Part shown: positions 9,063-33,636 of the stretch, in pieces
Layout: each line of letters starts with the position of its first letter
Position numbering within the stretch: position 1 is the first letter of the stretch
Sequence record: SRR31156797_2307
Length of the DNA stretch: 64,000 nucleotides
Direction: 5' to 3' (one strand)
Notes under the pieces: model-generated
Databases searched by the model: none
What the model was told of the DNA's origin: nothing
Seen by the model: only the letters and a program-made list of their open reading frames with translations
Position numbers and translations under genes: made by a program

Positions 9063-9064
9063 AT

Positions 9065-10174: not shown

Positions 10175-10177
10175 AAT

Positions 10178-10429: not shown

Positions 10430-10436
10430 TGGCATA

Positions 10437-11615: not shown

Positions 11616-11620
11616 TCAGA

Positions 11621-12703: not shown

Positions 12704-12711
12704 TCTTAATT

Positions 12712-13870: not shown

Positions 13871-13956
13871 ATCCCGGATGCAGCGTAGCGGAATTCAGGG
13901 ATTTTTTGTTATTAACTTATTATTCCCAAAATTTTGGGCTGATTCTTCGGATGACA
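13871..13956. repeat. REP-like palindromic element in the long intergenic gap
   Basis: ATCCCGGAT...ATTCAGGGAT imperfect hairpin (13871-13902), perfect palindrome CCCAAAATTTTGGG (13925-13938) and a GATTCTTCGGATGACA end that recalls Bacteroidota REP-type repeats. Confidence 0.4.
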
Positions 13957-14101
13957 AAACAGCTACTTTTTAGACCCCAGCAATAGAAATTGGGATAAAC
14001 GATAAGTAACTGAATTTGCTATTGTTGCAAAAGAGTTACATGTAAAACATACACAACTAAACATCATCTATTCAACAATTCTAATATAGATCAAACACAA
14101 T

Positions 14102-15163: not shown

Positions 15164-18100
15164 ATGTCATCAAAAGACATTGCAATTATAGGTATGGCAG
15201 CTCGTTTGCCTGAATGCGACAATATTCATCATTACTGGGATAATATTGTTTTAGGTAAAGAAATGATTTCAACCTTTAAAAGGGAAGACTTTAAGGAGGA
15301 ATATCAGAAAACTTTATTTGACAACGAGAGGTATATAAAACGGTCTTCTGTAATTCGGGATATTGATTGTTTTGACGCACGTTTTTTTGATTTCAGCCCA
15401 AGAGAAGCAGAACTTACCGATCCTCAATTTAGGCTATGTCTAGAAACAGCTTGGGAAGCGATCGAAGATAGTGGTTTCAATCCTAATAAAAACAGTGAAT
15501 GTGTTGGGGTTTACCTCGCTTCCAATATGTCAGATTATCAATTAAAACACTTGTATGACCAAATACACGGTGAAATGGTCTCTGAAAATGAGTTTCCTTT
15601 GGTTTACCAATCATGTATGGATTATTTGGCAACCAATGTGGCATACAAACTCAATTTAAAAGGGCCTTGTATGAATGTGCAAAACTGGTGTACATCGGGT
15701 TTAAGTTCAATACATCTAGCTTGCAGGTCTTTACTGTTCGATGATTGCGATGTGGCATTAGCTGGTGGCGTGCACATAAAATTACCACAAGAAGGCTACT
15801 TTAGCCAAGGTTCAGTTTCTGATTCTTCTGAAGGTGTATGCATGTCGTTTAATAAAGAGGCTAATGGAACTGTTCCGGCAAATGGGGTAGGTATTTTTAT
15901 TCTGAAAAAATTGGACGATGCCCTTCGCGACAACGATAACATTTATGCGATTATAAAAGGTTCTGCAATAAATAACGACGGAGTCGGTAAAAATAAGTTG
16001 AGCTATCACTCACCATCTATAAAAGGTCAGGATGAGGTAATAAAAAAAGCCTTAAAAAATGCAGGTGTAGATCCCGACACTATTTCGTTTATCGAAGCGC
16101 ATGGTGGTGCCACCGAATTTGGCGATAGGGCTGAATTAACGGCATTGGCTAAAAACTATGGGCTCAGCGGGCGTCAAACATTTCTTGGTTGCGTTAAGCC
16201 CAATATCGGGCACATGGGTAATATTTCGGGTATTCCCGGATTTATTAAAACTATAATGGCTCTTAAAACCAAACAATGGCCTCCTACTATTAATTTTTCC
16301 GAAATGTCTTCGAAAAATAAAAAAATAGGTCGGAATTTTACAGTTAATATAAAGCCTGTCGATTGGAAGTCTTCAATAGATTATAAACTGCGTGCCTGTG
16401 TACATAATTACGCTGTTGGAGGTTCGAATGCTCATATAATACTCGAAGAACCACCGGTTCAGAATGCTATTGAAAGTTGTGATTATAACAGTGTTGTTTT
16501 GGCTTTTTCGGCAAAAAACAACAAGTCCCTAAAAAAGCAAATAGAAAACATTGAATTGTTCCATGTTCATAATAGTTCAGTATTAAATTTGATTGACATT
16601 GCTTACAATCTTAATACAGGAAGAAAGGAATTTGAATATAGGCATTTTATGGTTTTGGATACAAACAAAAAAGCAACTTCAATTTCGGCTTCTAAAATTT
16701 ATGATGCAATAGGAACAATTTCTGGTGACTTTCAAGGGGAACAAACACTATTTTTAGGAAATAACAAGCATAATTGCAGGACTTTTAGTAAGATTTTAGC
16801 GAAAAGGTATAAAAGTTATAAAACAGATTTAATGACCTGTATTCTTGATATTGAAAAGCTACAGAATAGTAAAATATATTTTGATAGTATTAGTAATACT
16901 GCAGTCGGTACTTTTTATACTAGTATCGAAGAAAAGCTAATCGATATGGCGTGCCAGGTATCATTGTATCGATATTTGAATAGGTTAGGCATTGGTAAAA
17001 CTAATATTTTGGCAGATAATAGTGGCGAATTTATAGCACTTCATCTTTCAGGCTTTTCTTCCTTTAAAAAAATGGCAGAGCTATATATTAAAGCCTCTGA
17101 AGCCAACAGTTCTTTCGAAGATGAAGAAATTACAAGTTATTTCGATCTTCCCGATGCCAAATATGCATCTTATAAAAACTTCGATGGAAAAGTATCATAC
17201 AAAACAGAAGAAATAAGTAAACTGGCCTATTGGTCGAAACTTATAGATAAAGGAAATGATACTATTCAAAATAATTCAGAAGTTGATTGCGAAATATTAG
17301 ATCTTTCGGCATTAAAAATAAGCACCCTATCAGAAGCTATATCAAGTAAAACGAACGATTTTACTTCTTATGATTTTGATATTCTGGTAGGCCAATTATG
17401 GTTGAAAATTCCCAATTTAAATTGGAATGCATATTTCGATGAACGAAAGATGAAAAGAATGTCGTTGCCCACCTATCCTTTTCAAAAGGAGAAATTCTGG
17501 GTGTCTTCGCCTTTACTTGACGAAAAGCAACCGGTAGTATCAACTGAATTTCAAACAGAGGTATCGCAAGATAACATTCGGGAAAATCTGGTAACATTGT
17601 GGAAGAAAATTATAGGTTTAAAAGAAGTTAGCCCAGATGACGATTTCTATACTATAGGTGGAAATTCGTTTATTGCTGTAACATTGTTAAACAAATTGGC
17701 CAATATCTATAAAGGTCTCGATGTTTCTATAAAAGATTTGAACGACCATTCCAATATACAATTACTTACAACGTTTATTTATAAAGAATTGTCAAACAAC
17801 TCAGACGACAATCATTTTGATATTCAAAAAACACCGGTAGAAAAACTCGTTGAAAACGGATTGTTAGAGAAATATATCGAGCGATTGCTAAATAAACTGT
17901 TTCAGGGTAAATACAATTCCGACGAATTTAGTCTTATTGATATTGTTAAAGATGTATGCTTTTACTTTAAAAAGGATCTCGGATTAGTGGTTTTCACGCA
18001 TGAAATTGAGAACTTTTCAAGTACAGAAGTTTTGGTGAAATTTGTACGAGATGCTTTGTTAAATACACTTAATCCAAAGGGTGTAGGTTCGGGGTTATCT

Positions 18101-19003
18101 ACCAATAACTTTAAATGGTTGCCTAAAAACCTCGATTTCACAAAAAACAAGATATCACAAAAGAACAAAAGGGCTGTATTTATTTTATCTACACCACGGT
18201 CAGGATCAACTCTTTTAAGGGTGATGCTAAACAGCCATTCCACATTTTTTGCTCCACCCGAGTTAGGATTGTTGGTTTATAATAATCTGGAAGAATGGAA
18301 TCAATTCTATAATGTTTCCGAGGTGTCGAGAGATGGATTGACGTATGCTTTTTCTGCCATGCGTGATATTTCGTTTACCGAGGCCCGACAACAAGTAATG
18401 TCACTAGTTTCTGAAAAAAGGAGTGTTCAGGATATTTATTCATTATTACAGGAAGAAATAGGGGATAAGCTATTGGTTGACAAAACCCCTTACTATGGTT
18501 ATAGCAAAGAAATATTAGAAAGGGCCGAACAAATGTTCGATAATCCTTATTATATCTTTTTACACAAACATCCCTATAGTATGATCGAATCGTTTGTTCG
18601 TAATCGGTTCGATAAGCTTGTAGATAAGGGTGCTACCGATCCTTATATGATGGCTGAAAATGAATGGACAGAGATTAACCACAATATTATTGCTTTCTCA
18701 GAAAAGATTGATAGAAAACGATTTTTTCAATTATCGTTTGAAGAATTAGTTTCGGATCCTAAACGAGTAATGTCCGATCTGTTTCAGAAATTAAACATAG
18801 ATTTTCAAGACAGTGTTGTCGATCCATATAAAAACAGCTCAATGTTGGTTGGTCCTGGCGATTTTAACCTGCTTTCGCACGAAGGAATAGATAGCTCACT
18901 AGGCAATAAATGGAAAAATATTCAATTACCAATCGAGTTGAAGGATAGTACAAAAGATATTGCTTTAAAACTCGAATATTCTTTAGTGACGCATCACTTA
19001 TAG
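15164..19003 (+). CDS. Type I PKS: KS - inactive AT - ACP - vestigial ACP - sulfotransferase
   Basis: KS Cys-His-His (QNWCTSG, EAHGGAT, NIGH); AT remnant with ADNSGE where GHSxGE is expected; LPTYPFQ linker; ACP GGNSF; sulfotransferase FILSTPRSGSTLLR, PPE, DKTPY. No thioesterase. Confidence 0.9.
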   Translation: MSSKDIAIIGMAARLPECDNIHHYWDNIVLGKEMISTFKREDFKEEYQKTLFDNERYIKRSSVIRDIDCFDARFFDFSPREAELTDPQFRLCLETAWEAIEDSGFNPNKNSECVGVYLASNMSDYQLKHLYDQIHGEMVSENEFPLVYQSCMDYLATNVAYKLNLKGPCMNVQNWCTSGLSSIHLACRSLLFDDCDVALAGGVHIKLPQEGYFSQGSVSDSSEGVCMSFNKEANGTVPANGVGIFILKKLDDALRDNDNIYAIIKGSAINNDGVGKNKLSYHSPSIKGQDEVIKKALKNAGVDPDTISFIEAHGGATEFGDRAELTALAKNYGLSGRQTFLGCVKPNIGHMGNISGIPGFIKTIMALKTKQWPPTINFSEMSSKNKKIGRNFTVNIKPVDWKSSIDYKLRACVHNYAVGGSNAHIILEEPPVQNAIESCDYNSVVLAFSAKNNKSLKKQIENIELFHVHNSSVLNLIDIAYNLNTGRKEFEYRHFMVLDTNKKATSISASKIYDAIGTISGDFQGEQTLFLGNNKHNCRTFSKILAKRYKSYKTDLMTCILDIEKLQNSKIYFDSISNTAVGTFYTSIEEKLIDMACQVSLYRYLNRLGIGKTNILADNSGEFIALHLSGFSSFKKMAELYIKASEANSSFEDEEITSYFDLPDAKYASYKNFDGKVSYKTEEISKLAYWSKLIDKGNDTIQNNSEVDCEILDLSALKISTLSEAISSKTNDFTSYDFDILVGQLWLKIPNLNWNAYFDERKMKRMSLPTYPFQKEKFWVSSPLLDEKQPVVSTEFQTEVSQDNIRENLVTLWKKIIGLKEVSPDDDFYTIGGNSFIAVTLLNKLANIYKGLDVSIKDLNDHSNIQLLTTFIYKELSNNSDDNHFDIQKTPVEKLVENGLLEKYIERLLNKLFQGKYNSDEFSLIDIVKDVCFYFKKDLGLVVFTHEIENFSSTEVLVKFVRDALLNTLNPKGVGSGLSTNNFKWLPKNLDFTKNKISQKNKRAVFILSTPRSGSTLLRVMLNSHSTFFAPPELGLLVYNNLEEWNQFYNVSEVSRDGLTYAFSAMRDISFTEARQQVMSLVSEKRSVQDIYSLLQEEIGDKLLVDKTPYYGYSKEILERAEQMFDNPYYIFLHKHPYSMIESFVRNRFDKLVDKGATDPYMMAENEWTEINHNIIAFSEKIDRKRFFQLSFEELVSDPKRVMSDLFQKLNIDFQDSVVDPYKNSSMLVGPGDFNLLSHEGIDSSLGNKWKNIQLPIELKDSTKDIALKLEYSLVTHHL

Positions 19004-19101
19004 TATGGAGAAATTTAATCTCTCTTTTAAGCATTCTCCCATATTTGTTTATGTGTCATTTTGTTAGTCGCATTGCATTATTTAAATAATTTTTTATTCT
19101 T

Positions 19102-20442
19102 TTGAAAAATAAGCTAGTAATACTATTAGTCGAAGGTGCCAGTAAAAAACTAATTAATAAGTGGCAAGATAAACTTCCGTATTTAAGTAATTTATTAAGC
19201 AAAAATGGAGGAACCTTAACCACTAACGTAGTTCCGTATGAAGCACCAAACCTAATCTCGGCATTTACAGGGCTTCCGCCCGAAGAGCACGGTGTATATT
19301 CCTATTGGCACGTACATAACAACGACTATATTCCTAAAACATGGGATGCCCCGGATATTAAAGTACCAATGCTGTGGCAGTTACCGGAAATGGAGCAATA
19401 TAAGTTTTCGTTATTAAACTTATTCTGCACTTTTCCGGCATATCCCATAAATGGTAAAATGATATCATATTTGCAACAGCCTTCGTTAAGAGGGTGTTAC
19501 CCAGAGGGATACATAAAGGAACTTTTGCGAAACGGACATAAGTATACTTCCGATGTATTTGTTGGACTTGGCTATGGACAAGACAAACCAATTTCTGGAA
19601 AAAATATTTCACCTAGAGAAGAGTATTACAGGTTGTTTGAAGAAACAGAAAGGGCAAGGGTAAATATAGCCTCTGAAATGATGGAAGAATCAGATGTGCT
19701 TATAGCAAATTTTACTATAATTGACAGGCTTTCTCATTTTTTTTGGCACGAAATAGAATACGATTCACCTATAACCGAAGAGGATTCATTACTATTTAAA
19801 GCATATCGGTTTATCGATGAGGTTGTCGGACAATTTGCCGATAAAATTGGAACAGCATCCAACCTGTTGGTTTTTTCAGAGATTGGTTATGGCCCCTTAA
19901 TCAATTTTGTTTCTATCAACAATTATCTCGAAACTGGCAAGTTTTTGTCTCGGGAGAATTCTTCTACTAGTTGGCAAAAAACATTGACATTTGAGAGTGT
20001 TCAGGGAGCCCATGGAGTTAATATCAATAAAAAAGACAGATACCTAAATGGCCTGGTAAACGACGACGATTACCAAAAGGTGCGGATTGATACAATGGAT
20101 TATTTAAAGAGCCTGATCAATCCCAAAACAAGTCTTCCAATGTTCCGTTTTGTTAAAGAACGCGAAGAGGTATATAATGGAACATACATGCAACAAGCTC
20201 CCGATATAATTGTTGAAATGGCCGATAGAAGATTTGTACCCTTAGGTGATGAATATTGGTCGAGTAAGGTACATCGGATTAATCAAAGCGGATGGCACCG
20301 AAAAGAAGGATTTTGGACCGGATATGGTGATAAATTCAATGGAAAACTTATGGATGCATCTATACTTGATATAGCTCCTACGGTTTTCAAAATTTTAGAC
20401 AAGGAAATAAATACAGAGTTTGTGGGAAAACCTATCATTTAA
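19102..20442 (+). CDS. Alkaline phosphatase superfamily protein (type I phosphodiesterase/nucleotide pyrophosphatase-like) with atypical ligands
   Basis: LLVEGA, TG..PEEHGVY, DRLSHFFW, VFSEIGYG, APDII, SGWHRKEG and DIAPT align with the AlkP/NPP-like family. Confidence 0.75.
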   Translation: MKNKLVILLVEGASKKLINKWQDKLPYLSNLLSKNGGTLTTNVVPYEAPNLISAFTGLPPEEHGVYSYWHVHNNDYIPKTWDAPDIKVPMLWQLPEMEQYKFSLLNLFCTFPAYPINGKMISYLQQPSLRGCYPEGYIKELLRNGHKYTSDVFVGLGYGQDKPISGKNISPREEYYRLFEETERARVNIASEMMEESDVLIANFTIIDRLSHFFWHEIEYDSPITEEDSLLFKAYRFIDEVVGQFADKIGTASNLLVFSEIGYGPLINFVSINNYLETGKFLSRENSSTSWQKTLTFESVQGAHGVNINKKDRYLNGLVNDDDYQKVRIDTMDYLKSLINPKTSLPMFRFVKEREEVYNGTYMQQAPDIIVEMADRRFVPLGDEYWSSKVHRINQSGWHRKEGFWTGYGDKFNGKLMDASILDIAPTVFKILDKEINTEFVGKPII

Positions 20443-20470
20443 TCAGGTTAGGTTATATAAAAATGAAAAA

Positions 20471-21277
20471 ATGGGAAAGCTAGCTTCTAAACTAAAGTCT
20501 TTTAAATTAATTCGATGGTTTTTGTGGTATGTCAAAGTACAGAATAAGTTGCCGCTGGTGCTTGAAATAGAATTAGACTCGCTTTGCAATCGTAAATGCA
20601 CCTATTGTCCTAATTATAAACACGAAAGGGCACATCATACTTTAAGTTCTGATACATATAAAGGTATTATTGGCCAATTACACGAAATGGGTTGGAAGGG
20701 TGTTATTTCACCGCATTTTTACAACGAACCTTTGCTCGATAAACGATTAGAAGAATTGTTATTGTATACAAAACAAAAACTAGGTAAAAGAGCATGTATC
20801 AAACTATTTACAAACGGCGATTTGCTAACAACTGAATTAGCAAAGAAGTGGCTATTCGATTCTAAAATAGTAGACGAATTTGTGGTTACAGTCCATGAAA
20901 AAGATTTGTCGGATAGGAAAGATTTGGTGGATTTATCCAAACTTCCCGAGTATCAAAGAAAACTGTATGTTAGATCAACTGAGAATATTGAAAAACAATA
21001 TTTAAACAGGGGTGGTATCATGGATTTTGATTATGTAAACTGGGGGGAGGAGTTTCAAAAACTCGGTTGTTCATTAACACAAAGAATGATTATAACCTCA
21101 AAGGGTAATCATGTGTTATGTTGCAACGACTATTTCGAAAAAACTGCATTTGGAAATGTCAGTGATACAAGTATCCAGAAACTATGGAGCAAATCTAAAA
21201 AAACAAGAAAAGACACCTATATAGGTAATTTCAAATTACCAATTTGTAAAGTATGCGTAGGCATTTCAAAAAACTAA
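20471..21277 (+). CDS. Radical SAM enzyme with twitch/SPASM domain
   Basis: CNRKCTYC, NEPLL, TNG, NRGG, C...CCNDY...FGN...CKVC. ATG 20471 is preferred to the overlapping start at 20420. Confidence 0.88.
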   Translation: MGKLASKLKSFKLIRWFLWYVKVQNKLPLVLEIELDSLCNRKCTYCPNYKHERAHHTLSSDTYKGIIGQLHEMGWKGVISPHFYNEPLLDKRLEELLLYTKQKLGKRACIKLFTNGDLLTTELAKKWLFDSKIVDEFVVTVHEKDLSDRKDLVDLSKLPEYQRKLYVRSTENIEKQYLNRGGIMDFDYVNWGEEFQKLGCSLTQRMIITSKGNHVLCCNDYFEKTAFGNVSDTSIQKLWSKSKKTRKDTYIGNFKLPICKVCVGISKN

Positions 21278-21294
21278 AATAAAAAAATAATAAT

Positions 21295-22749
21295 ATGAAC
21301 AACGAAAATTCAATGAACAGTAACGTATATGTTGTATTTGGAGCACAAACGTGTATACTAAATAGGACCCACACCCAAAGAATGAGGAATTACTTGGAAA
21401 AAAATGGTTATAATTTAACATCAAATATAGCTGAGGCAGGAACTATATTTTTTTCAGGATGTGCAGCTACTGGATCAGCTGAGTTATATAACTTGAACGA
21501 ACTGGCCTATTTAGAAAAAAGAGTTGAAGAGAATAATTCAGGGCAAAGAATAATATTGTTTAGCTGTTTACCCATTATAAATAAAAGAACGCAGGGAGAA
21601 TATAAAGACAGTGCGAATAATCAGAAAAACATTATTTTAGAAGGGAAATATAAAAATGATCCCAATTCAAGATATGTTTATATAGACACCTATGATTTCA
21701 CAATGTTGGATGATATGTTTGCTCATAAGGTTAAATTCAAGGATGTACCTGTTCCAAACCAAATAACTCCAGATTCAGGAATGGAGTCCATGCAATTGGC
21801 GCTAAGAGCATTAAAGAATTGCCAATACGGTGGAATTGAAGATTTTAAGGATTCCTATGTTAAGCAAGCAGGTTTACAATCGCAGTTAAAGCAATTGGGC
21901 CAGTTTTTTCCTATTACGTGTGATTTTTTACAAAGTTATGGGTACTACTCTGTTACCATAGGAAATGGATGTATTCACAAATGCGCCTTTTGTTCTGTCA
22001 AGTTTGGTAAATACTTGTTAAAAAGTGAACCACTTGATCAGATCTTGAGAGATATAAAGAAACTGGAAGAAAAGGGTATAAACAAATATTTATTGTTGTG
22101 TGACGATTTGGGTTCATGGGGACGCGACACAAAATCACATTTCACCGTTCTGTTAGATGCCATTGCCGATTTAAATATAGAAGGTATGAAATTGGCACTT
22201 TATAACGTAAAAATTAATGATGTAATAGAAAATAGGGAGTTTTTCGATAATATGGTAGACAAAGGGCTGATAAGCTACATGGGGATTATGAACCAGCATG
22301 TTGACGAAAATATTATTGAAAGCATGAACCGGAAGCCATTTGATGAGGAAGTCTTCCTAGACATTATTAATACCTATGGAGATAAAGATGTTAACATGCA
22401 TGCGCATCATATTATAGGATTCCCGGGTGAAACTGAGGAACAATTCCAGCGCTTGCTCAATTTTATTTCAAAAATAAAAACTAAGAACTGTGGTATTTTA
22501 AACCTTCCTTATTCTCCAAGGAAAGGAACTAAGGCATATGAATATACCAATGTAGTTCCAGAAGATATAAAAATGGAAAGGGTACAACGTATGAATATTC
22601 ATAACTTAAATGTTGCATCCGAAAGATTTAAGGGATTCAATGAAGAGATAAGAGCAACCTTACTTGAATTAATGCGATTGTTTTTTGCAGGTAAAGAAAT
22701 CCAGGAATACTTGATGAACAAGAACGAAACTACAGAGAAAGAAGCATAG
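21295..22749 (+). CDS. MiaB/RimO-like radical SAM methylthiotransferase-family protein lacking an evident TRAM domain
   Basis: UPF0004-like N-terminus with three cysteines (QTCILN, SGCAAT, FSCLP); GCIHKCAFC; IIGFPGETEEQF; YSPRKGT.A. Confidence 0.8.
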   Translation: MNNENSMNSNVYVVFGAQTCILNRTHTQRMRNYLEKNGYNLTSNIAEAGTIFFSGCAATGSAELYNLNELAYLEKRVEENNSGQRIILFSCLPIINKRTQGEYKDSANNQKNIILEGKYKNDPNSRYVYIDTYDFTMLDDMFAHKVKFKDVPVPNQITPDSGMESMQLALRALKNCQYGGIEDFKDSYVKQAGLQSQLKQLGQFFPITCDFLQSYGYYSVTIGNGCIHKCAFCSVKFGKYLLKSEPLDQILRDIKKLEEKGINKYLLLCDDLGSWGRDTKSHFTVLLDAIADLNIEGMKLALYNVKINDVIENREFFDNMVDKGLISYMGIMNQHVDENIIESMNRKPFDEEVFLDIINTYGDKDVNMHAHHIIGFPGETEEQFQRLLNFISKIKTKNCGILNLPYSPRKGTKAYEYTNVVPEDIKMERVQRMNIHNLNVASERFKGFNEEIRATLLELMRLFFAGKEIQEYLMNKNETTEKEA

Positions 22750-22885
22750 TTTACGGTTGGCTGTGTGAGCCTACTATTATTTTAGGTGCAAAAAAATACT
22801 TGATGACAAATAAATATTATTTGTAGGTGTTTTGTTTTGTAATAACCTGTTCTTTAAAATCACATTAATTTACAACCAATTTAGA

Positions 22886-25800
22886 ATGAAAGATATAGCA
22901 GTTATAGGGGTGTCTTGCCATTTTCCGGGTGCTGAAAATAAAGATCAATTTTGGAACAATCTTAAACAAGGGGTAGATTCAACAACCAGGTTTACCAGGC
23001 AAGAATTACTGGATGCAGGAGAAAAGCCTGAATTGCTTAATGATCCTGATTATGTTATGGCAGCTCCAATTGTCAAAGACTATGACAAATTTGATGCTAA
23101 CTTTTTTGGTTATAGCCCAAGTGTGGCAGAGTTGATGAATCCTGAAGCCAGGTTAATGCTTCAATGTGCATGGGAAACGTTAGAAGATGCAGGCTATGTA
23201 TCGGAAAAATATAAAGGAGCAATTGGTGTATATGCAGGGGCATTAATGCATAATTATTATAAAGACAACATCTGTTCAACCATCGATTTTGAAAAATGGT
23301 CGGAATCTATAAGGGCTTTTTCTTTAAACGAAAAAGAATACTTAACAACAATAATAGCCGATCGACTTCATCTTAAAGGGCCTGCTGTTACGCTGCAGTC
23401 TTTTTGTTCAACATCCTTAATGGTTATCCACTATGCATGCCAGGATATTATTTCTGGTACTAGTGATATAGCCTTAGCCGGTGGGATAAACATCAGAATA
23501 CCTCATGAGAGGGGTCATATCTATGAAGAAGGTGGAATGCAGGGCCCGTATGACCATTGTAAAGTATTCGACGAGAAGGCGGCGGGTACAATATTTGGAA
23601 GCGGATATGGCATGGTTGCATTAAAAAGGCTTGATCGTGCTATAGAAGATAACGACCATATTTATGCTGTAATTAAAGGGACGAGTGTAAACAATGATGG
23701 AGGTAATAAGTTAAGCTTTATGGGGCCGAGTATTTCCGGCCAGAGTGAAGTAACAAAAAAATGCATTAATATTTCAGGCATCGACCCTCAAACAATTGGC
23801 TATGTCGAGGCTCATGGAACAGGTACTGATGTCGGAGATCGTATAGAATATATCGCCTTATCAAAGGCACTTAAATCTTTGAAAAAGAACCAACATAAAT
23901 GTCCAATAGGTTCGGTGAAAACAAATATTGGGCACTTGGGTATATCTTCGGGTATTGCCGGATTTATAAAAACGGTTTTAACAATACATCATAAGGGAAT
24001 ACCTGCAAATTTATATTTCGACAAGCCGAATCCCCATATTCGGTATGAAGAAAGTCCTTTTTATGTTAATACAGAGTTTATAGATTGGGAAAAACAGGAA
24101 TATCCGAGAAGGGCAGTGGTTTGTTCTCAGGGAGTTGGGGGTACAAATGCTTGTGCAGTTTTAGAAGAGGCTCCTGAAATAAGGCTTGAGAATAAAAAAG
24201 ATGGTCTTTTCATTTTGCCTTTCTCTGCTAAAACAAATTCGGCGTTAAAAGCTGTAAATAAAAACTTGGAAGTTTTTATTAAAGAAAACGAAATTGAATC
24301 GGAACCCCTTTCTTATACCCTGTGCTGTGGAAGGAAACAACAGGAGAAAAGAAATTTTGTTATTGGGAAAGACCGGCAAGAGTTACTGTCAAATCTTGGC
24401 ATGATCTGTAATAAAGATATCGTAGAAGCTAAGAAAGCGAATCAATCGGTTGTGTTTATGTTTCCGGGTCAGGGATCTCAACATATTGATATGGGATATG
24501 ATCTTTATCTTAAATATACGAATTTCAGAAAATATTACGATCAGTGTGCAGATATATTGAACGATTTGCTAAATAAAGATATCAGGAATATAGTTTTTAA
24601 TCATAGTGAAGATCATGAAACGGCTACGGAAAAATTAAAAACTACTCGTTATGCCCAGCCTGCTATTTTCTCGCTTGAGTATTCGCTGGCCAGATTTTTA
24701 GTGGATTTAGGCATTGAACCGGCAGCCTTGATAGGTCACAGTGTTGGTGAATTTGTAGCAGCTACCCTAGCAGGAACTATTGGGTTGGAAGATGCTTTGA
24801 GGTTAATAGTTAAAAGAGGTGAATTATGTAACCGTGCAGAAGCCGGAGGAATGCTGTCCGTGTCATTGGGATATAGTGCAATACAGCCTTATCTGCATGA
24901 TAAAGTATCGGTAGGTGCAATTAATTCTCCTTTTCTAACCATTGTTTCGGGTCCATACAGAGAATTGGAAAAACTGAAGGAACAGCTCGAAAAAGATGGT
25001 AAAAACTGTAACTATCTTCATGCATCGCACGCATTCCATTCTTATATGATGCAGCCGATGTTGGATGAATTTATAAGTCTCTTTGAAAGGGTTACATTAC
25101 AAAAACCAGGAATACCAATAATGTCGACCGTAACAGGTCAATGGCTAAACATGGAGGAAGCCATTTCGCCACAGCATTGGGCCGATAATGTACGTAACAC
25201 GGTAAGGTTTTCAGAGGGGATTACAAAATTATTGGAAGAAACCGATCATATGCTTCTTGAAGTTGGTCCGGGAACCACCTTGGCAACCCTCACAAAATGT
25301 CATAAAGATCCGTTTCCAGAAAGAACTATTGTAACATCTTTAAAGCACGCTTCGGACAATATACACGATGACAAAATATTTTTAACATCTCTTGGGAAAA
25401 TATGGTCAGCTGGCATAAAAATAAACTGGGATTTGTTGTTCGACACAAAAAATAGCCAAAAGATATCACTGCCAACTTATCCTTTTGAGAAAAAGAGGTT
25501 TTGGATCGATATTAATCCTACAAACAAAATACTTCCTGTTCAACAAGAAATAAATCCACGATATTACTACAGACCAAGTTGGAAAGAGGGTTATATTGAC
25601 AAACCAACTGTAAGCGAAAAATCGTGTGTACTATTTAACGATGGCTCGGACTTATCCAAAGAATTGTCTGAACAATTAAGCCAAAACAATTCGGTAATCA
25701 ACGTTTTCTACCAAAAAGAATTATATAAACAAGAAAAAGGCAATTATCTGGTCGATACATGCGACAAAGATGCCTTTAAAAAATTGTTTGATATCATAAT

Positions 25801-28800
25801 CACGGAACATGCCAAACCTGATCAGGTAGTATATTTATGGAACAAAAAAAGTGTAGATAGCAATAATCCATACAATGATTTTTTCACTTTGCTTGGAATG
25901 GTTAAAGCATTGGGCAAACTTTCTTCGGGTCGCGAAATAAATATGTTGGTTGTTTCTGTCGAGTCAGAAAATATTAGCGGCAACGAAACAGTTGAGCCAT
26001 TGTTGTCTCTTTCTAAAGGAATAGTGAAAGTAGCCGCAACCGAGTATAGCGGTTTGCAATGCAAGCATATCGATGTGCAAAAACTATCGGATATAAAAAG
26101 TACTACACAAAACATTTTAATAGAAATGTCTTTATCCCAAAATGGTAGTACTGTTGCTTATCGTAACAATAAACGGTGGGAAAGATATTATGAAACCACA
26201 GATTTTAATCCGTATGGCAGTAATCTAGAATATAAAGATTCTGATATTTACCTGGTTACTGGAGGTCTTGGAGGTTTGGGTTTCGAAATGGCAAAGCATA
26301 TTGCTTCGTCAAGCCGCTCAAAAATAATTTTAACAGGAAGAACCGATATCGATAATCAAAATGATTCTATTAAGCAAGAAAGGTTCAAACAATTAAAATC
26401 GTTAAACAATGAAATCGAATACCATGCTTTAGATATTGCTAATGATAAACAGGTAGGTGATTTTGCCAGGGAAGTAATTAAAAAACACCATCATATCAAA
26501 GGTATCTTTCATTGTGCAGGAAATCCTGGAGGAGGTATAATAGAACTCAAAACAAAGGAAATGGCTTTGAAAGTTTTAGATCCTAAGGTTATTGGCACCT
26601 CTGTTTTGTACAAGTATTTTAAAGACAGTTTAACGGATTTTCTGTTGTTGTTTTCATCCGTGGCTTCAATAAAAAGTTTGGTGGGTCAGGTAGAATATAC
26701 AGCGGCTAATGCCTTTTTAGATGCTTTTGCCCAATCAGTAAATGACCCAAGGGTAGTAAATATTAATTGGGATTTGTGGGGACAAACCGGTATGGGCTTT
26801 ATCGATGTGCCCGCATCAATGAAAAAACAAAGAGGAATTGACCTTGCAAAGGGAATAAAAACCGCGGAGGGTATTTCAACCATAGAAAATGTACTTAGTT
26901 CGCGACACTATAATAACTTAATAGTATTGAACGAACCGCTGGAAGGAACAAGTGATACAAATGCAAGAATACAGCCAGCATCCAGAAGTATAGTCGAAAA
27001 TGTACCAGAGAAATCTGTAATTGAGAAAAATCCCGATATTGAAAAGTGGTTTTATACACAAACGTGGAACAAATCTCATTTTCCTTTTTCAGGAATTGAG
27101 AATGGAGACCAAACATGGCTCGTGTTTGCGGGTAATTCGCAAATATGTCGTAATCTGATAGAAAATATTGGAAACAGAGGTCATAAAGTAATTACTGTAA
27201 ATATTGGAGATGAATATAATACTATCGACGCGTACAATTATGTATTGAACCCAGGAGATAAGTCAGGTTATGTTTCGCTTGTAAACAGCTTGAAAGAAAA
27301 TGATTTGGTTCCTGGTCATATACTGCATTTTTGGACAGTAAATGACGAAATTAAAGATGAAGTAATTATTAAAAAAAATACATTTAGGGAATTACAATCA
27401 ATTGGTATTTATAGCGCTGTTGAATTGTTACAGGAATTGAATACGTCGTGCTATATCGAAGAACTTAAATTTACTCTGATAACCCGAAATATATACAATG
27501 TAACAGGATACGAAAAGTTAAATCCTCAAAATGCTACTATTCTCGGATTGCTTAAGGTTACTTCTCTTGAATATCCAAACATTATAATCAGAAATATAGA
27601 TTTAGACAGCGATTCGCAAAATGCTCTTCAGTTGTATAACGAATTGTACAATGGCGAATACAAGAAAATTAAAGCTGTACGAAACGATAAATGTTGGGTA
27701 CAATCGTATGATCATATCAATTTGCAAAATCTGGTTCCTGGCAATTCAATTGTTAAAGATGGAGGTGTTTATTTAATTTCTGGTGGACTTGATGTTGTAG
27801 GCTATCGTGTTGCCGAGTTTATGTCCCGTACCTTTAAGATAAAACTTGCTCTTGTGGGTGAAATGAAAACTCACAAATGGGATAAGTGGAACAACCTTGA
27901 TCTGGAGGATGATTCTTCGGATGCTATTAGAGCGCATAAATTAGAAGGGTTGAAAAAATTCAATCCCGATATCGACTATTACAGTATCGATATTACATCG
28001 GCCGAAGCATGGAACGAAACTATTGATGCCGTTACCGCGAAATGGGGTACCATTGATGGAATAGTACATGCAGCCGCAACTTTAGATCCTTCATCGTTTA
28101 AACCTATAAACAATGTTACAAGCAACGAGTTCGAAGAGCATTTTAATACCAAGGTATACGCGTCTTTAATTATTACCGATATTATTGAAAAACACGCTAT
28201 TCAACAATGTTTGTTCGTGTCTTCTGTTTCTTCAATTCTGGGTGGTATTGAGTTTGTAACTTATTCATCGGTAAACAATTTCCTCGATAATTTTGTGAAT
28301 TATCTGAAATACCGGTTTAAAGAAAAAACCATAGCGTTATTAAATCTTGATGAATTACAATTCAACGAGAAAGAAGAAAAAATTACACGTTATGGAAAAG
28401 AATTACAGCGATTGTCGATATCAGGTAACGAATTGCACAAAATATTCTCTTATTTTTTAACTGAAATCAGAGAAAACCAACTTGTAATTTCTACTAGTGA
28501 GCTGTTACCAAGACTCGAGAAATGGCACGGGTTGCATAAAAAAGTCGAAACAGTACCTGAAACTTCTGTAAGCTCAAATCTAGTAACAACTACCTACGAT
28601 ATCAAACAAGAGCTTGTAAATATTTGGCAGGAAATATTGGGATTTGATACAATTCAAATAACCGATAATTTTTATGCCTTGGGTGGTGATTCGTTGTTGG
28701 CCACAAGTATGGTAAACAGAATGAGGAAGAAGTTTGGCAATATAAATATCTCCATTGGCGATATTCTTGACAAACCTACCATAGAGCAGCAAGAAGAATT

Positions 28801-30367
28801 GGTAAAACAATACTATAAACCCACACAAATTAGTACAACTCTTACAGGCAATGCAATTTTTGACGTTAAAGACGAAATTATATCTATCTGGAAACAGACG
28901 CTGGGTTTTGATTCTATCGATCCTAATTCAAACTTCTATGCTTTAGGTGGTGATTCATTGCTTGCCACAAGTATTGTGAATAAGTTAAGGCAGAAATTTA
29001 GTAATATTGATATTTCTATTGGCGATATTCTTGATAATCCGACAGTTGAGAAACAAGAAAAATTAATTGGCCAGTTATCCAATATTGAAGATGAAGAACC
29101 GAAGGATGTTTACTCGCAATATATAGAAAGCGAAAAGGCCGAACGGTTTGAAATTGTAACCAATTATTTTATTTCGCTTTTAAAACAATCGGGTATTATT
29201 GAAACAAACAACGATATCGACAAATCGATAAATCGATCGTTAAAACTAAATGGTATAATCTATTCAGGTTTTGTTAAAGATTTTAAAATTCCGATATACG
29301 AAAACGAAATTTTACTTCATACTTCATATCGCGAATTGCTTTCGGCTATTTTCACGGAATTAGAGAAATTCAATGGGTTTGCCGACTTGGGTGCAGACAT
29401 TGAGTTCGAAGCCGCAATACCTGACTTAAAACCTGGCAAAAGAATAATCCTAGGCAAAAAGAAAAATCCATCCATGGTATTTGTGCATTCTGCACCACGG
29501 TCTGGTTCAACCTTATTTAGACTAATGCTCGAGGGACACGAAAAGTTGTTTAGTCCTCCGGAATTTCAGCTTTTAAATTATAATGATTTAGCTCATTGGA
29601 ATTCAGATCGGGTTAAAATAACCAAAAATTATAGTGGCTTGGCATTTTCGCTGGCTAAAATTCATAATACAAATATGAGTTCTGCTAATAGTACTTTGGA
29701 TCAGATGGTTGCTAAGTCGCTATCAATAAAAGATGCTTATAAAACTATACAGTCAGGTTTAGAGGGAGTTACATTGGTAGATAAATCGCCAAATTATGCT
29801 ATCGACATAAATCATCTGGCAAAGGCAGAAGAAATATTCGACAGGCCCAAACATATTCATTTAGTTCGACATCCTTTCCCGGTTATAGAATCATTTGTGC
29901 GCAATCGTATGTTTGCATGGTTCAACAATAGTGAAGGTATTAACCCGTACAAGTTTGCCGAAAAAATATGGTATCTCAATAATTTCAATTTGTTTCATTT
30001 TAAAGAGATGGTTTCGGCCGATCAGTATTTATTGGTGTGTTACGAAAATCTTGTCAGCAATCCTGAAGATGAAATGAAAAAAATATGTTCATTCCTTGAT
30101 ATTGAATTTAACAAGGATATGCTTTCTCCATATACAGGGCAAAAAATGATCGACGGTTGTGGAGACCCAACTGTTGGTACAAGAAATAACATTGATAAAA
30201 ATCTTGCTGAAATCTGGAAAACTATTGATCTGCCTATATCGTTATCAAAGTGTACCATTGAACTGATGGGGAAATTTGGCTACACTCAACCCGAAAGCAA
30301 TGAAGCCGATCTCTCTCAATTGTTACAGGAAGAAATTTTCAGGGAAATGAATAACGGATTACAATAA
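22886..30367 (+). CDS. Type I PKS: KS - AT (malonyl-type) - KR - KR - ACP - ACP - vestigial ACP - sulfotransferase
   Basis: KS QSFCSTS/EAHGTGT/NIGH; AT FPGQG, GHSVG, HAFHS; KR1 GGLGGLG...YTAAN; KR2 GGLDVVG...YSSVN; two LGGDSL ACPs; sulfotransferase SAPRSGSTL, PPE, DKSPNY, VRHP. ATG 22886 (MKDIAVIG) is the likely start. Confidence 0.92.
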   Translation: MKDIAVIGVSCHFPGAENKDQFWNNLKQGVDSTTRFTRQELLDAGEKPELLNDPDYVMAAPIVKDYDKFDANFFGYSPSVAELMNPEARLMLQCAWETLEDAGYVSEKYKGAIGVYAGALMHNYYKDNICSTIDFEKWSESIRAFSLNEKEYLTTIIADRLHLKGPAVTLQSFCSTSLMVIHYACQDIISGTSDIALAGGINIRIPHERGHIYEEGGMQGPYDHCKVFDEKAAGTIFGSGYGMVALKRLDRAIEDNDHIYAVIKGTSVNNDGGNKLSFMGPSISGQSEVTKKCINISGIDPQTIGYVEAHGTGTDVGDRIEYIALSKALKSLKKNQHKCPIGSVKTNIGHLGISSGIAGFIKTVLTIHHKGIPANLYFDKPNPHIRYEESPFYVNTEFIDWEKQEYPRRAVVCSQGVGGTNACAVLEEAPEIRLENKKDGLFILPFSAKTNSALKAVNKNLEVFIKENEIESEPLSYTLCCGRKQQEKRNFVIGKDRQELLSNLGMICNKDIVEAKKANQSVVFMFPGQGSQHIDMGYDLYLKYTNFRKYYDQCADILNDLLNKDIRNIVFNHSEDHETATEKLKTTRYAQPAIFSLEYSLARFLVDLGIEPAALIGHSVGEFVAATLAGTIGLEDALRLIVKRGELCNRAEAGGMLSVSLGYSAIQPYLHDKVSVGAINSPFLTIVSGPYRELEKLKEQLEKDGKNCNYLHASHAFHSYMMQPMLDEFISLFERVTLQKPGIPIMSTVTGQWLNMEEAISPQHWADNVRNTVRFSEGITKLLEETDHMLLEVGPGTTLATLTKCHKDPFPERTIVTSLKHASDNIHDDKIFLTSLGKIWSAGIKINWDLLFDTKNSQKISLPTYPFEKKRFWIDINPTNKILPVQQEINPRYYYRPSWKEGYIDKPTVSEKSCVLFNDGSDLSKELSEQLSQNNSVINVFYQKELYKQEKGNYLVDTCDKDAFKKLFDIIITEHAKPDQVVYLWNKKSVDSNNPYNDFFTLLGMVKALGKLSSGREINMLVVSVESENISGNETVEPLLSLSKGIVKVAATEYSGLQCKHIDVQKLSDIKSTTQNILIEMSLSQNGSTVAYRNNKRWERYYETTDFNPYGSNLEYKDSDIYLVTGGLGGLGFEMAKHIASSSRSKIILTGRTDIDNQNDSIKQERFKQLKSLNNEIEYHALDIANDKQVGDFAREVIKKHHHIKGIFHCAGNPGGGIIELKTKEMALKVLDPKVIGTSVLYKYFKDSLTDFLLLFSSVASIKSLVGQVEYTAANAFLDAFAQSVNDPRVVNINWDLWGQTGMGFIDVPASMKKQRGIDLAKGIKTAEGISTIENVLSSRHYNNLIVLNEPLEGTSDTNARIQPASRSIVENVPEKSVIEKNPDIEKWFYTQTWNKSHFPFSGIENGDQTWLVFAGNSQICRNLIENIGNRGHKVITVNIGDEYNTIDAYNYVLNPGDKSGYVSLVNSLKENDLVPGHILHFWTVNDEIKDEVIIKKNTFRELQSIGIYSAVELLQELNTSCYIEELKFTLITRNIYNVTGYEKLNPQNATILGLLKVTSLEYPNIIIRNIDLDSDSQNALQLYNELYNGEYKKIKAVRNDKCWVQSYDHINLQNLVPGNSIVKDGGVYLISGGLDVVGYRVAEFMSRTFKIKLALVGEMKTHKWDKWNNLDLEDDSSDAIRAHKLEGLKKFNPDIDYYSIDITSAEAWNETIDAVTAKWGTIDGIVHAAATLDPSSFKPINNVTSNEFEEHFNTKVYASLIITDIIEKHAIQQCLFVSSVSSILGGIEFVTYSSVNNFLDNFVNYLKYRFKEKTIALLNLDELQFNEKEEKITRYGKELQRLSISGNELHKIFSYFLTEIRENQLVISTSELLPRLEKWHGLHKKVETVPETSVSSNLVTTTYDIKQELVNIWQEILGFDTIQITDNFYALGGDSLLATSMVNRMRKKFGNINISIGDILDKPTIEQQEELVKQYYKPTQISTTLTGNAIFDVKDEIISIWKQTLGFDSIDPNSNFYALGGDSLLATSIVNKLRQKFSNIDISIGDILDNPTVEKQEKLIGQLSNIEDEEPKDVYSQYIESEKAERFEIVTNYFISLLKQSGIIETNNDIDKSINRSLKLNGIIYSGFVKDFKIPIYENEILLHTSYRELLSAIFTELEKFNGFADLGADIEFEAAIPDLKPGKRIILGKKKNPSMVFVHSAPRSGSTLFRLMLEGHEKLFSPPEFQLLNYNDLAHWNSDRVKITKNYSGLAFSLAKIHNTNMSSANSTLDQMVAKSLSIKDAYKTIQSGLEGVTLVDKSPNYAIDINHLAKAEEIFDRPKHIHLVRHPFPVIESFVRNRMFAWFNNSEGINPYKFAEKIWYLNNFNLFHFKEMVSADQYLLVCYENLVSNPEDEMKKICSFLDIEFNKDMLSPYTGQKMIDGCGDPTVGTRNNIDKNLAEIWKTIDLPISLSKCTIELMGKFGYTQPESNEADLSQLLQEEIFREMNNGLQ
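28595..29074 (+). repeat. Tandem duplicated ACP domains within the large PKS (264-nt spacing)
   Basis: IW..ILGFD.I...NFYALGGDSLLATS.VN..R.KF.NI.ISIGDILD.PT.E.QE occurs twice. Confidence 0.9.
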
Positions 30368-33300: not shown

Positions 33301-33636
33301 TTCAGAATCGATTCTATTCCTGTAAATCGAAACGGAAAAATTAATTATGCAGAACTTAAGAAGCAGGAAGGGACAAACAATAAAGCCATTTCAAAAATGT
33401 ATCCACGCACCGATTTTGAAAAACAAATTGCGTATTATTGGATGCAAAGTATTGGATTAAAAAATGTTTCGCTAGTAGATAATTTCTTCGATATTGGCGG
33501 ACATTCATTAAAAGCGCTTGAGGTTATTTCTACAATAAAAAGCAATTTTGATATCGAAATTGTGTTTCGCGATTTTATCAATAATAATCTTGGGCAGTTT
33601 TGTAAAATGTGTGAAGAAAAATTAAGTATGAGGTAA
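30397..33636 (+). CDS. Single-module NRPS C-A-T with no thioesterase
   Basis: C domain HHIISDWWS; A domain FTSGTTGKPK, LSGLTHDPLIRD, YGATE, YKTGDLG, QVKIRG, LPEYMIP, NGK; T domain GGHSL. Confidence 0.93.
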   Translation: MNDSTTSNTIGYKINKPTDLKIYPVSPPQKRLWFNDLLNAESEAYNLHRIYKVKGNLKIDLLEQSINILFSKQKSFFTIFREKAGKLFQVVLPPNYIKLQVTDLTDMTFEQVVDPSSLVLNEIISTQFDISKWPIFRIRLLRLKNNISLFCFVQHHIISDWWSIGLTFGQLSEIYNTLESGREFEYPELKLQYCDFSIKRDMELSNGIYGEQLDFWKNKLRHSSDFNFPYDYKRLENSKRIGQLVNKEVPSEITRAINSICKEENVSLYVFLLSAFGAYINKLTGSRKINIGLPIANRNNSDLEDIIGFFVNIIVAQVNVMENASFAECLRSVRKEMYKGYDNQDIPFDKIVEAINPSRNNNKNPLFQVFFNMLNKNDNAFSLNNLEIERINYEVNIKSYFDFTIYITDKTDTILLTCLYDTDLMKRSTVEKMLDQYVFILSQISQNVNGQISGLTLRSEEDYQLLPDPTKNIDPSLGGYNLLDRVFENKGLNIALVFNNQEWDYNAIDEVCNKMVSCFKSSGIKQGDHVAIYATRSAVSVIAVLAVLKFECVFCIIDLSEQPVDKIVEQIDWSNPQSAIYIETSDNGNATKWEELKQKTAINIELPESKDELTSFLQEYKYENHPNINKPDSESYILFTSGTTGKPKAVVGTMRPIACFISRHIKSFDLNNKYNYALLSGLTHDPLIRDIFVPLCVGATLYIPDNDLLRSLKLAEWLENYNINTINITPALISVLTNDTEHAIKCVKHIFCGGDILSIDMVKKLKTKFPDANIINCYGATETPQIISYFTITDALYEDFEKNKIGKILIGSETESTQLILVNNNKLAGVGEIGEICVRSPYLSKGYLKQKHETKERYITNVFTGNSNDIIYKTGDLGRYTVDGNIEFIGRADSQVKIRGYRFDIKEIEYILKQHTFIESAVAIIKSESGNDDKKIVAYYVSDRNISSLEIKGFLRRKLPEYMIPSSLFRIDSIPVNRNGKINYAELKKQEGTNNKAISKMYPRTDFEKQIAYYWMQSIGLKNVSLVDNFFDIGGHSLKALEVISTIKSNFDIEIVFRDFINNNLGQFCKMCEEKLSMR

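Follow-up and report, generated by a model that had tools for sequence, protein, structure and literature searches.

Two polyketide synthases ending in CurM-family sulfotransferase domains without a fused thioesterase: a lineage that could act inside the assembly line

We analysed a 64,000-nt stretch of DNA from the sequence record SRR31156797_2307 (hereafter the window, at its full length), in which two polyketide synthases, PKS1 and PKS2, each end in a sulfotransferase (ST) domain of the CurM family and are followed by a nonribosomal peptide synthetase (NRPS). The STs of CurM and of the olefin synthases (OLS) are known for one function, that is, the activation of a beta-hydroxyl so that a fused thioesterase (TE) cuts off a terminal alkene. 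The window has a G+C content of about 33%, and all of its 40 open reading frames (ORFs) of at least 150 aa lie on the plus strand; our domain and family scans took in all 40 of them. Below, KS is ketosynthase, AT acyltransferase, KR ketoreductase, DH dehydratase, ACP acyl carrier protein, and C, A and T are the condensation, adenylation and carrier domains of an NRPS module. The features at the centre of the analysis are the following:

15164-19003, plus strand: PKS1, 1279 aa, with (Pfam) a KS, a degenerate AT remnant, an ACP, a linker of about 130 aa and ST1
18149-19000, plus strand: ST1, CurM-family sulfotransferase domain at the C-terminus of PKS1 (phmmer envelope, residues 996-1279)
22832-30367, plus strand: PKS2, 2511 aa, with KS, AT, KR1, KR2, ACP, ACP and ST2 (Pfam on the whole protein and on pieces)
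29450-30298, plus strand: ST2, CurM-family sulfotransferase domain at the C-terminus of PKS2 (phmmer envelope, residues 2207-2489)
30397-33636, plus strand: NRPS module C-A-T (Pfam Condensation, AMP-binding, PP-binding), starting 29 bases after PKS2
33636-34421, plus strand: hyd1, alpha/beta-hydrolase (Pfam Hydrolase_4/Abhydrolase_1), elbow GNRMG with Arg at the nucleophile site
34444-35274, plus strand: hyd2, alpha/beta-hydrolase (Pfam Hydrolase_4/Abhydrolase_1), elbow GICSG with Cys at the nucleophile site

A preliminary description of this DNA, made from its letters only, had placed sulfotransferase domains at 18173-19003 and 29474-30367, and both are borne out by Pfam and by the phmmer envelopes. 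Precisely, Sulfotransfer_3 (PF13469) was found at residues 1005-1216 of PKS1 (E-value 7.9e-24) and at residues 2216-2427 of PKS2 (E 3.8e-24). ST1 aligned with the CurM ST chain 4gbm_A at E 1.1e-68 and with the olefin-synthase ST chain 4gox_A at E 2.7e-56, and ST2 aligned with the same two chains at E 1.4e-55 and E 6.9e-58, respectively; these alignments span about 278 residues and are far beyond chance. The motifs that had been quoted (PRSGSTL, PPE, DK(T/S)P.Y and GD...ID..L...W) are all present in the alignments of both domains: PRSGSTL and PPE occur in ST1 as well as in ST2, the third reads VDKTPYY in ST1 and VDKSPNY in ST2, and the further quoted motif reads GDFNLLSHEGIDSSLGNKW in ST1 and GDPTVGTRNNIDKNLAEIW in ST2. 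Behind the ST, 0 residues are left in PKS1 and 22 in PKS2.

To compare active sites we aligned 122 ST domains, that is, the 120 best matches plus ST1 and ST2, and listed the columns conserved in at least 85% of the 51 rows in which the ST is followed by a TE-sized region (ST-TE rows). Columns were numbered as in CurM, and the numbering was checked against the 4gbm alignment. Both ST1 and ST2 keep the columns R39-S-G-S-T43, E60, D132-K133, H162-P163, S169, W194, N200, E219, Y248, D266 and W283, while ST1 has a Lys for the Arg161 of CurM. In the CurM ST structure of McCarthy et al. from 2012, Glu60 and Lys133 are reportedly catalytic, and His62 and an active-site flap are likewise said to have roles. 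The His62 of CurM is replaced by Gly in ST1 and by Gln in ST2, in a column that is less than 85% conserved even in the ST-TE rows.

The 122 rows were labelled by the number of residues behind the ST, with 52 rows having fewer than 120, 51 having 120-360 (TE-sized) and 19 having more. In a quick tree of all the rows, ST1 and ST2 fell in a clade of 28 rows (SH-aLRT 95), every one of which is terminal in its protein. We also computed a more careful tree on 62 of the 122 rows, chosen by hand to cover all groups, in which both domains were again in one clade, of 23 rows (UFBoot 99, SH-aLRT 96), all 23 being protein-terminal and TE-less; a subclade of 13 rows has a support of 100/93. The nearest partners of ST1 were P0001-P0004 and those of ST2 were P0005, P0007 and P0015, the exact sister of ST2 being uncertain because its branch is long (1.2). 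CurM itself (P0021) lies elsewhere in the careful tree, among the ST-TE rows. With respect to these rows, the TE-less clade has a deletion of 7 residues ahead of GDPN, I/L/V for F269, I/L for T254, Y for F66 and a change at E83.

Since ST1 and ST2 share an all-terminal clade apart from CurM, they are CurM-family domains, but not of the ST-TE kind. The preliminary description had called them CurM/Ols-type: the family assignment holds, with E-values from 1e-55 to 1e-68, whereas the phylogeny places both domains outside the CurM/OLS group of ST-TE rows. They belong to a separate CurM-family lineage that is always at the protein end and is never fused to a decarboxylating thioesterase.

The two PKSs differ in what surrounds the ST. 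In PKS1 the KS has its active residues (C176, H313, H350), and the carrier domain (PP-binding, residues 809-872, with serine S835) is N-terminal to the ST at residues 996-1279. No KR was found by Pfam in PKS1, either on the whole protein or on pieces, as the preliminary description had said. The 310 residues behind the KS had no Pfam match; this region lines up with the AT domains of relatives (alignment A1), with ADNSG at the place of GHSxG and a loss of about 100 columns; in pairwise comparison the AT core is weakly supported (E 0.12). PKS1 hence lacks a working AT as well, a point absent from the preliminary description. The closest relatives of PKS1 (P0001-P0003) have 1276-1279 aa and the same complement of Pfam domains, and over residues 700-1279 their identity to PKS1 is 47-54%. 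A scan of contigs with alignment A1 gave 80 loci (L001-L080) that match only residues 1 to about 926, with the KS pattern dominant and the ST uncovered, so the absence of close relatives there means little.

PKS2, instead, has an AT with the motifs GHSVG and HAFH, a KR1 with the normal TGGLGGLG and its K, S and YxxxN, and a KR2 with SGGLDVVG in place of the normal motif, yet with K, S and YSSVN kept. Its two PP-binding domains (residues 1926-1989 and 2014-2075) are N-terminal to the ST at residues 2207-2489. Hence a KR able to make a beta-hydroxyl in the ST's own module is present for PKS2, which has two, and absent for PKS1. Pfam did not find a DH domain in either protein. For the C-terminal half of PKS2 no close relative was found, the best reaching 28-39% identity at a coverage of at most 61%, and there was no close match for the tandem KR-KR and ACP-ACP.

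We consider ST1 and ST2 to be probably active, genuine PAPS-dependent sulfotransferases of the CurM family (PAPS, 3'-phosphoadenosine 5'-phosphosulfate). A different explanation is that one or both are inactive, or have a structural or docking role only, and that the product has no sulfate-dependent feature. PKS1 already holds one dead domain, the AT remnant, and the module of ST1 has no hydroxyl-forming partner; moreover His62 is replaced in both domains and ST2 has a long branch. However, the PAPS loop and the strongly conserved columns of the catalytic site are all kept in ST1 and ST2, and all 28 rows of the TE-less clade retain R39-T43, E60 and D132-K133. In addition, ST1 is 61-68% identical over the full domain to the STs of separate metagenome relatives, which argues for selection on it. 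With these data we regard the loss of ST function as improbable.

A search of 1.84 billion cluster representatives with an ST profile, which takes in all ST contexts, gave 15636, 3306 and 1247 proteins at E-values of 1e-3, 1e-10 and 1e-30, respectively. The best 150 representatives contain 158 ST domains, of which 64 are at the protein end, 39 are followed by a CurM-type TE, 28 by a C domain and 2 by another ST, the other 25 having unmatched tails; as the profile was made from TE-less STs, these counts are biased in favour of that type, and fragments are numerous among the 150. A KR-less order KS-(AT)-ACP-ST, like that of PKS1, recurs in 15 of the best 150, and in 8 of them there are two STs each, in C-A-T-ST repeats. 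We also scanned metagenomes with the ST alignment and kept 80 loci. There the ST is followed by a TE in 48; it ends the protein with no PKS or NRPS domain just downstream in 15, and the next ORF behind a terminal ST begins with a C domain in 3 and with a KS in 1. In 8 more the ST is followed by a C domain in the same frame (5 within the same ORF, 3 with the frame running off the contig after ST-C); in 2 the frame runs off the contig after the ST alone, and 3 have an unmatched tail.

The TE-less relatives are of several kinds. Proteins of about 2000 aa have KS, AT, KR, ACP and ST without a TE, with source names that include Anaerolineae, Roseiflexaceae and Herpetosiphonaceae; P0037 and P0038 (named Pyxidicoccus trucidator) have KS, AT, ACP and ST without a KR; others are adenylation-carrier-ST proteins of about 955 aa, or have C, A, carrier and ST. 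Therefore TE-less in-line STs, even several per protein, are frequent in metagenomic PKS and NRPS proteins and not rare. In the literature that we searched, which did not take in subscription journals and supplementary files, we found no description of CurM-type ST domains in TE-less PKS modules.

Two observations on these relatives are reported here in their own right. P0276-P0282 and P0292 are metagenomic NRPS proteins with two CurM-family STs each, in repeated C-A-T-ST or in ST-ST tandems, which points to putative assembly lines that sulfonate at several positions. At another metagenome locus (L103, 7900-11790) the gene directly behind that of a TE-less KS-(partial AT)-KR-ACP-ST protein encodes a fusion of a major facilitator superfamily (MFS) transporter with a penicillin amidase, and this fusion is a possible trans-acting release or processing enzyme for the TE-less ST class.

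The NRPS behind PKS2 is a complete C-A-T module, in which the C domain has the motif HHIISDW. Its A domain reads THDPLIRD where an FDxS core is usual (at about residues 690-700), with INCYGATE at the A5 motif, and it may activate something other than a standard alpha-amino acid. Glycine, suggested by LgrA as the top match in the Protein Data Bank (PDB), was withdrawn as a candidate substrate, the score being the sum of two A domains.

Two hydrolase genes stand right behind the NRPS, hyd1 at -1 base and hyd2 22 bases further. The preliminary description had stated that there was no thioesterase: it was correct in that there is no ST-TE unit and no PF00975 (thioesterase) match in any of the 40 ORFs, but it had overlooked these two discrete alpha/beta-hydrolases. 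They resemble the NCBIfam models for exosortase-A-associated hydrolase 2 and 1 (E 1e-28 for hyd1 and 2e-29 for hyd2, below the cut-off), and their PDB matches are esterase-type structures. The CurM TE is not among these matches and the likeness to it is limited to a 29-residue segment at the elbow (E 0.007), so hyd1 and hyd2 were rejected as CurM-type TEs. A homologous hydrolase pair was found just upstream of a TE-less A-T-ST gene at a metagenome locus (L143). One of the two hydrolases there (6349-7146) has the elbow GLRFG, with Arg, and its partner has GLCTG, with Cys, which parallels the GNRMG of hyd1 and the GICSG of hyd2. The elbow residues suggest that hyd1 and hyd2 form a pair of a pseudo-enzyme and a Cys-hydrolase, and we consider them candidate trans-acting release enzymes.

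The same genes bear on the explanation nearest to the known systems, that is, an ordinary CurM/OLS terminal olefin whose TE acts in trans, being either one of the downstream hydrolases or encoded elsewhere in the genome. PKS2 does correspond to a CurM/OLS module minus the TE (KS-AT-KR-ACP-ST), two alpha/beta-hydrolase genes lie 3.3 kb downstream, and the absence of a TE is established within the window only. Nevertheless, ST1 and ST2 do not group with the ST-TE rows, and none of the 23 rows of their clade has a TE; a complete C-A-T module, which would be pointless after a decarboxylative release, stands between ST2 and the hydrolases; these are esterase-type or exosortase-associated proteins that match the CurM TE at the elbow only, with an Arg at the nucleophile position of hyd1; and ST1 precedes another PKS, hence is not at the chain end. 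We therefore regard this explanation as very improbable.

Immediately downstream of PKS1 there is a gene for a protein of another superfamily:

19102-20442, plus strand: divergent protein of the alkaline-phosphatase (AP)/nucleotide pyrophosphatase-phosphodiesterase (NPP) superfamily, 446 aa (PF01663, E 5e-26)

Its AlphaFold2 (AF2) model has a mean pLDDT of 93, and the best Foldseek matches were ENPP6, ENPP1 and the Xac NPP, with E of about 1e-14, TM-scores of 0.55-0.66 and 10-14% identity; hence Pfam, the AF2 model and Foldseek agree on an NPP/AP fold. In NPPs the motifs comprise a Thr/Ser nucleophile and Asp/His metal ligands (DG, T/S, DxxxH, SDHG). This canonical set is not complete in the AP-like family, in which an invariant Glu47 (P45-Y46-E47) is at the nucleophile position, E11-G12 is found for D-G and S259-E-I-G for the SDHG of the relatives in genome G186, while D208 and H212 are kept. 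A formylglycine sulfatase matured by the radical-SAM/SPASM protein of the overlapping gene (SAM, S-adenosylmethionine) was ruled out, the nucleophile position being an invariant Glu and not Cys or Ser; the same idea is contradicted by locus L081, in which the AP-like gene is followed by an AT-bearing gene and not by a radical-SAM gene.

Only 35 relatives of the AP-like protein were found at an E-value of 1e-3 or better. At L081 an AP-like copy, 65% identical to that of the window, begins 15 bases behind an ST with 68% identity to ST1; next comes a gene beginning with a KS-AT linker and an AT domain. Two other AP-like relatives, P0126 and P0128, we take as co-located with the PKS1 relatives P0002 and P0003, since the paired contigs are both of 18006 and both of 12752 bases, respectively. 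The ST1 type therefore has an AP-like gene as a conserved neighbour (window, L081, P0002/P0126, P0003/P0128). The third gene at L081 (2256-2717) encodes a protein that starts with the KS-AT linker and AT, without a KS, and could be a trans-acting AT for an AT-less module of the PKS1 type.

Among more distant relatives, the Sorangium homologue P0141 was not found in 3 genomes, nor in 151 genomes of G001's family, and the AP-like profile matched 1 of 401 sampled genomes of G003's phylum, namely G186. There, on the minus strand of L164 (G186:C27:29000-48000, from about 5250 to 14965), four PF01663 genes are interleaved with an ATP sulfurylase, an adenosine 5'-phosphosulfate (APS) kinase and a GFO/IDH/MocA oxidoreductase. 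In these PF01663 proteins the canonical catalytic residues are intact; their identity to the AP-like protein of the window is 18-25%, and no CurM-type ST was found in G186. The neighbourhood is a weak hint that the AP-like family is linked to PAPS metabolism.

Neither ST module is the last in line: PKS1 is followed by three genes and then by PKS2, and PKS2 by the C-A-T module, so that the gene order puts each ST inside an assembly line with modules downstream. As the STs are of a TE-less lineage, the sulfate probably travels on along the assembly line and does not serve to cut off a terminal alkene. In keeping with the preliminary description, which saw no CurM/OLS-style ending here, a decarboxylative olefin release is unlikely because the STs are intact but there is no ST-TE unit and PKS1 has no KR; the C-A-T module 29 bases behind ST2 reinforces this.

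We thus propose that ST1 and ST2 would be in-line tailoring domains, each O-sulfonating, at a hydroxyl, the chain that its own ACP carries, and that the sulfated chain would be handed on from PKS1 to PKS2 and from PKS2 to the NRPS. The substrate of ST2 would be the beta-hydroxyl made by KS-AT-KR of PKS2, with a chemistry as in CurM, and the 3-sulfooxyacyl chain would pass to the C domain of the NRPS, 29 bases further on. For want of a KR in its own module, ST1 would depend on a hydroxyl that is brought in by the starter unit or made by a reductase acting in trans, e.g. the additional KR of PKS2; the second KR and the second ACP of PKS2 are suggestive in this respect. Release of the product would fall to the discrete hydrolases, most likely to hyd2 with its Cys, and the MacB/HlyD/TolC-type genes would export it; a product made in this way would not be a terminal olefin. 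We infer the activity, the substrates and the fate of the sulfate from what was observed at the level of domain identity, domain order, intact motifs, clade membership and conserved neighbours.

For in-line O-sulfonation of carrier-bound intermediates, as opposed to olefin off-loading, we see an even chance. We judge the evidence equally balanced on whether at least the sulfate of ST2 is retained, in a sulfated, possibly disulfated, product resembling an N-acyl amino acid. That at least one sulfate, most likely that of ST1, is only transient, its processing being assisted by the AP-like neighbour, is a more tentative suggestion, to which we give roughly one chance in three.

Several points weigh against the proposal. 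PAPS is a costly cofactor for plain decoration, and no PAPS-synthesis family was found among the 40 ORFs of the window, the rest of the genome being outside this search. PKS1 has no KR, so there is no evident hydroxyl for ST1, and the reductase acting in trans is pure conjecture. PKS2 as a whole has no close relative, so comparison lends no support to a conserved layout with two STs. The replacement of His62 in both domains is to be added here, together with the conserved AP-like neighbour, which hints that the sulfate ester of ST1, or PAP(S), is processed further and so fits a transient sulfate better. Finally, the only characterised function of CurM-family STs is activation for elimination (PMC11730487, PMC11837247).

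This last point leads to an alternative in which one or both sulfate esters are installed only to be expelled in the middle of the assembly. The outcome would be an enoyl or dienoyl chain formed by elimination, the ST taking the place of a DH, or a ring closure by displacement with an amine or carboxylate; for the KR-less PKS1, the enol of a beta-keto chain would be sulfonated and then undergo addition-elimination. The AP-like protein would bind the sulfate ester and help its departure. Two genes upstream of PKS1 are of interest in this respect:

7734-9062, plus strand: 442-aa protein, no Pfam or NCBIfam match
10178-10429, plus strand: free-standing acyl carrier protein, 83 aa, with the motif DIGMDSL (NCBIfam ACP models with E down to 2.6e-9, below the cut-offs)

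The 442-aa protein has Atlas feature scores of 0.95-0.98 to pre-ATP-grasp/ATP-grasp clusters, one of which is automatically named "butirosin ACP-L-glutamate ligase", and its best PDB match is the ATP-grasp peptide ligase 8ynd (E 0.067). It is possibly an ATP-grasp ligase of the BtrJ kind that loads an amino acid on a carrier protein, which we offer as a lead only.

Sulfation followed by cyclisation is said, going by the title of a work of Kurosawa et al. from 2022, to have been found before. A loss of the sulfate would agree with neither PKS having a DH, with a conserved neighbour of the ST1 type that has the AP/NPP fold without the usual nucleophile, and with the recurrence of KR-less KS-(AT)-ACP-ST proteins among the best 150 representatives; the possible ATP-grasp ligase and the free ACP could supply an amine-bearing amino-acid starter. 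It would also agree with published work, in which the studied CurM-family members activate a hydroxyl for elimination (PMC11730487, PMC11837247) and sulfation followed by cyclisation has a precedent in ficellomycin (PMC8713700). On the other hand, a DH would dehydrate without the cost of PAPS; the AP-like protein has no canonical catalytic residues and could instead handle PAP or PAPS, and distant relatives of it occur without a CurM-type ST, e.g. in G186; the ATP-grasp assignment is weak (E 0.067); and no computation shows a loss of sulfate. Expulsion of the sulfate in the middle of the assembly is, in our opinion, possible but rather unlikely, retention being the favoured fate.

A wider form of the same idea is that the TE-less ST lineage represents a new assembly-line chemistry, in which a carrier-bound sulfate ester is an in-line leaving group. 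ST1 would sulfonate the enol of a beta-ketoacyl-ACP or the hydroxyl of an amino-acid-derived starter, and its AP-like partner would be a sulfate-ester lyase or cyclase forging an alkene, an alkyne or a heterocycle ahead of PKS2; in the metagenomic NRPSs the C-A-T-ST repeats would turn Ser/Thr into dehydroamino acids. We consider this general form doubtful.

The genes of the cluster between 7734 and 37711 are tightly packed, with gaps of -23 to 98 bases and a single exception of 418 bases. Their order is: the 442-aa protein, a weak GT28-like protein, the free ACP, two radical-SAM/SPASM genes, a GFO/IDH/MocA gene, a third radical-SAM/SPASM gene and PKS1, and then the AP-superfamily gene, a fourth radical-SAM/SPASM gene, a MiaB/RimO-like gene, PKS2, the NRPS, the two alpha/beta-hydrolases and a MacB-type permease. 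Beyond 37711 there are more radical-SAM genes, three paralogues without a family, a RidA/FkbO-like gene, export genes and a phosphopantetheinyl transferase (PPTase). The features that have not been given so far are the following:

10437-11615, 11621-12703 and 14102-15145, plus strand: radical-SAM/SPASM genes 1-3 (Pfam Radical_SAM and SPASM; no NCBIfam model at cut-off)
12712-13683, plus strand: GFO/IDH/MocA oxidoreductase (Pfam GFO_IDH_MocA; no NCBIfam model at cut-off)
20420-21277, plus strand: fourth radical-SAM/SPASM gene (Pfam), with a 23-base overlap with the stop of the AP-like gene
21295-22749, plus strand: homologue of MiaB/RimO-like radical-SAM methylthiotransferases (Pfam; NCBIfam TIGR00089, E 5.7e-47, below cut-off)
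35306-37711, plus strand: MacB-type ABC permease (Pfam)
46272-52467, plus strand: export genes, namely ABC, ABC-2, HlyD and outer-membrane factor (Pfam)
47024-47803, plus strand: Sfp/HetI-type phosphopantetheinyl transferase (Pfam ACPS and AASDHPPT_N; NCBIfam HetI, E 9.5e-17, below cut-off)

Outside the core genes, the ORFs at 37752-40514, of 168 aa (B12-binding-like), 302 aa and 310 aa (radical-SAM), with 94 and 320 bases between them, match one after the other successive sections of the models for B12-binding radical-SAM methyltransferases, which has the look of genes that have been split or frameshifted, or of a faulty assembly. The three paralogues (40801-42246, 42760-43593 and 44771-46186; 481, 277 and 471 aa) have long conserved stretches in common and no Pfam or NCBIfam match, and they flank the RidA/FkbO-like gene. 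At 723-2719, about 5 kb upstream of the cluster with its 8 radical-SAM ORFs, a gene of the PNP_UDP_1 phosphorylase superfamily and a SAM synthetase gene may serve SAM supply and by-product salvage. At the other end (53241-63499) the G+C content falls to 27-29%, and a polysaccharide-type set is found, i.e. a Wzy_C O-antigen-ligase-like gene, two GT4 glycosyltransferases and a MurJ/MatE-type flippase. The Rfam scan and the tRNA search of the window gave 0 matches each. For 8 proteins of the window an identical sequence was sought in a 15-billion collection, and there was none. Among sequencing runs, the stretch was found in its probable source run only, with no RNA run listed for it.

TE-less contexts outnumber ST-TE among the best 150 of the 1247 representatives at E 1e-30, and the TE-less STs are a large uncharacterised class. 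If its function were solved, be it the making of sulfated lipids and peptides or the use of sulfate as an in-line leaving group, many biosynthetic genes that are so far unexplained could be annotated, and polyketide engineering might gain a tool. As a test case the window is compact, in that it holds an ST with a KR, an ST without a KR, a conserved AP-like partner and candidate trans-acting release enzymes.

Among known systems, the ACP-ST-TE unit of CurM (curacin A synthase of Moorena/Lyngbya; 4GBM) has the same ST fold and family, with the PAPS loop, the Glu of PPE and the Lys of DK; it also has the ST behind the ACP of a type I PKS module, and the order KS-AT-KR-ACP-ST is that of PKS2. In contrast to CurM, the STs of the window have no TE, are in another clade and have the 7-residue deletion ahead of GDPN; an NRPS module comes behind ST2, while other genes and a PKS come behind ST1, and PKS1 lacks a KR and a working AT.

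The cyanobacterial OLS (4GOX), with the order FAAL-ACP-KS-AT-KR-ACP-ST-TE (FAAL, fatty acyl-AMP ligase), shares with the window the ST family and, for PKS2, the KR-bearing extension module ahead of the ST. In the OLS the sulfate is the leaving group for a TE-driven decarboxylative elimination (PMC11730487). The window cluster has no catalyst for this elimination; it lacks the FAAL loading didomain as well as the TE, and it has downstream modules.

The products of the oci system of Planktothrix carry a sulfated glyceric acid. The oci cyanopeptolin NRPS has an embedded sulfotransferase domain (PMC2533009), which, as in the window, is inside the assembly line and not part of an ST-TE off-loading unit; it is hence a model for a retained sulfate. 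Compared by domain layout, the two differ in that the oci ST is in the loading region, beside a glyceric-acid-loading domain, and not behind a PKS ACP.

Also comparable to the window are the uncharacterised TE-less KS-AT-KR-ACP-ST and KS-(AT)-ACP-ST proteins of metagenomes and metagenome-assembled genomes, which have STs of the same clade (23 of 23 rows), placed at the protein end; with respect to these, the window joins two such PKSs with an NRPS and many radical-SAM genes.

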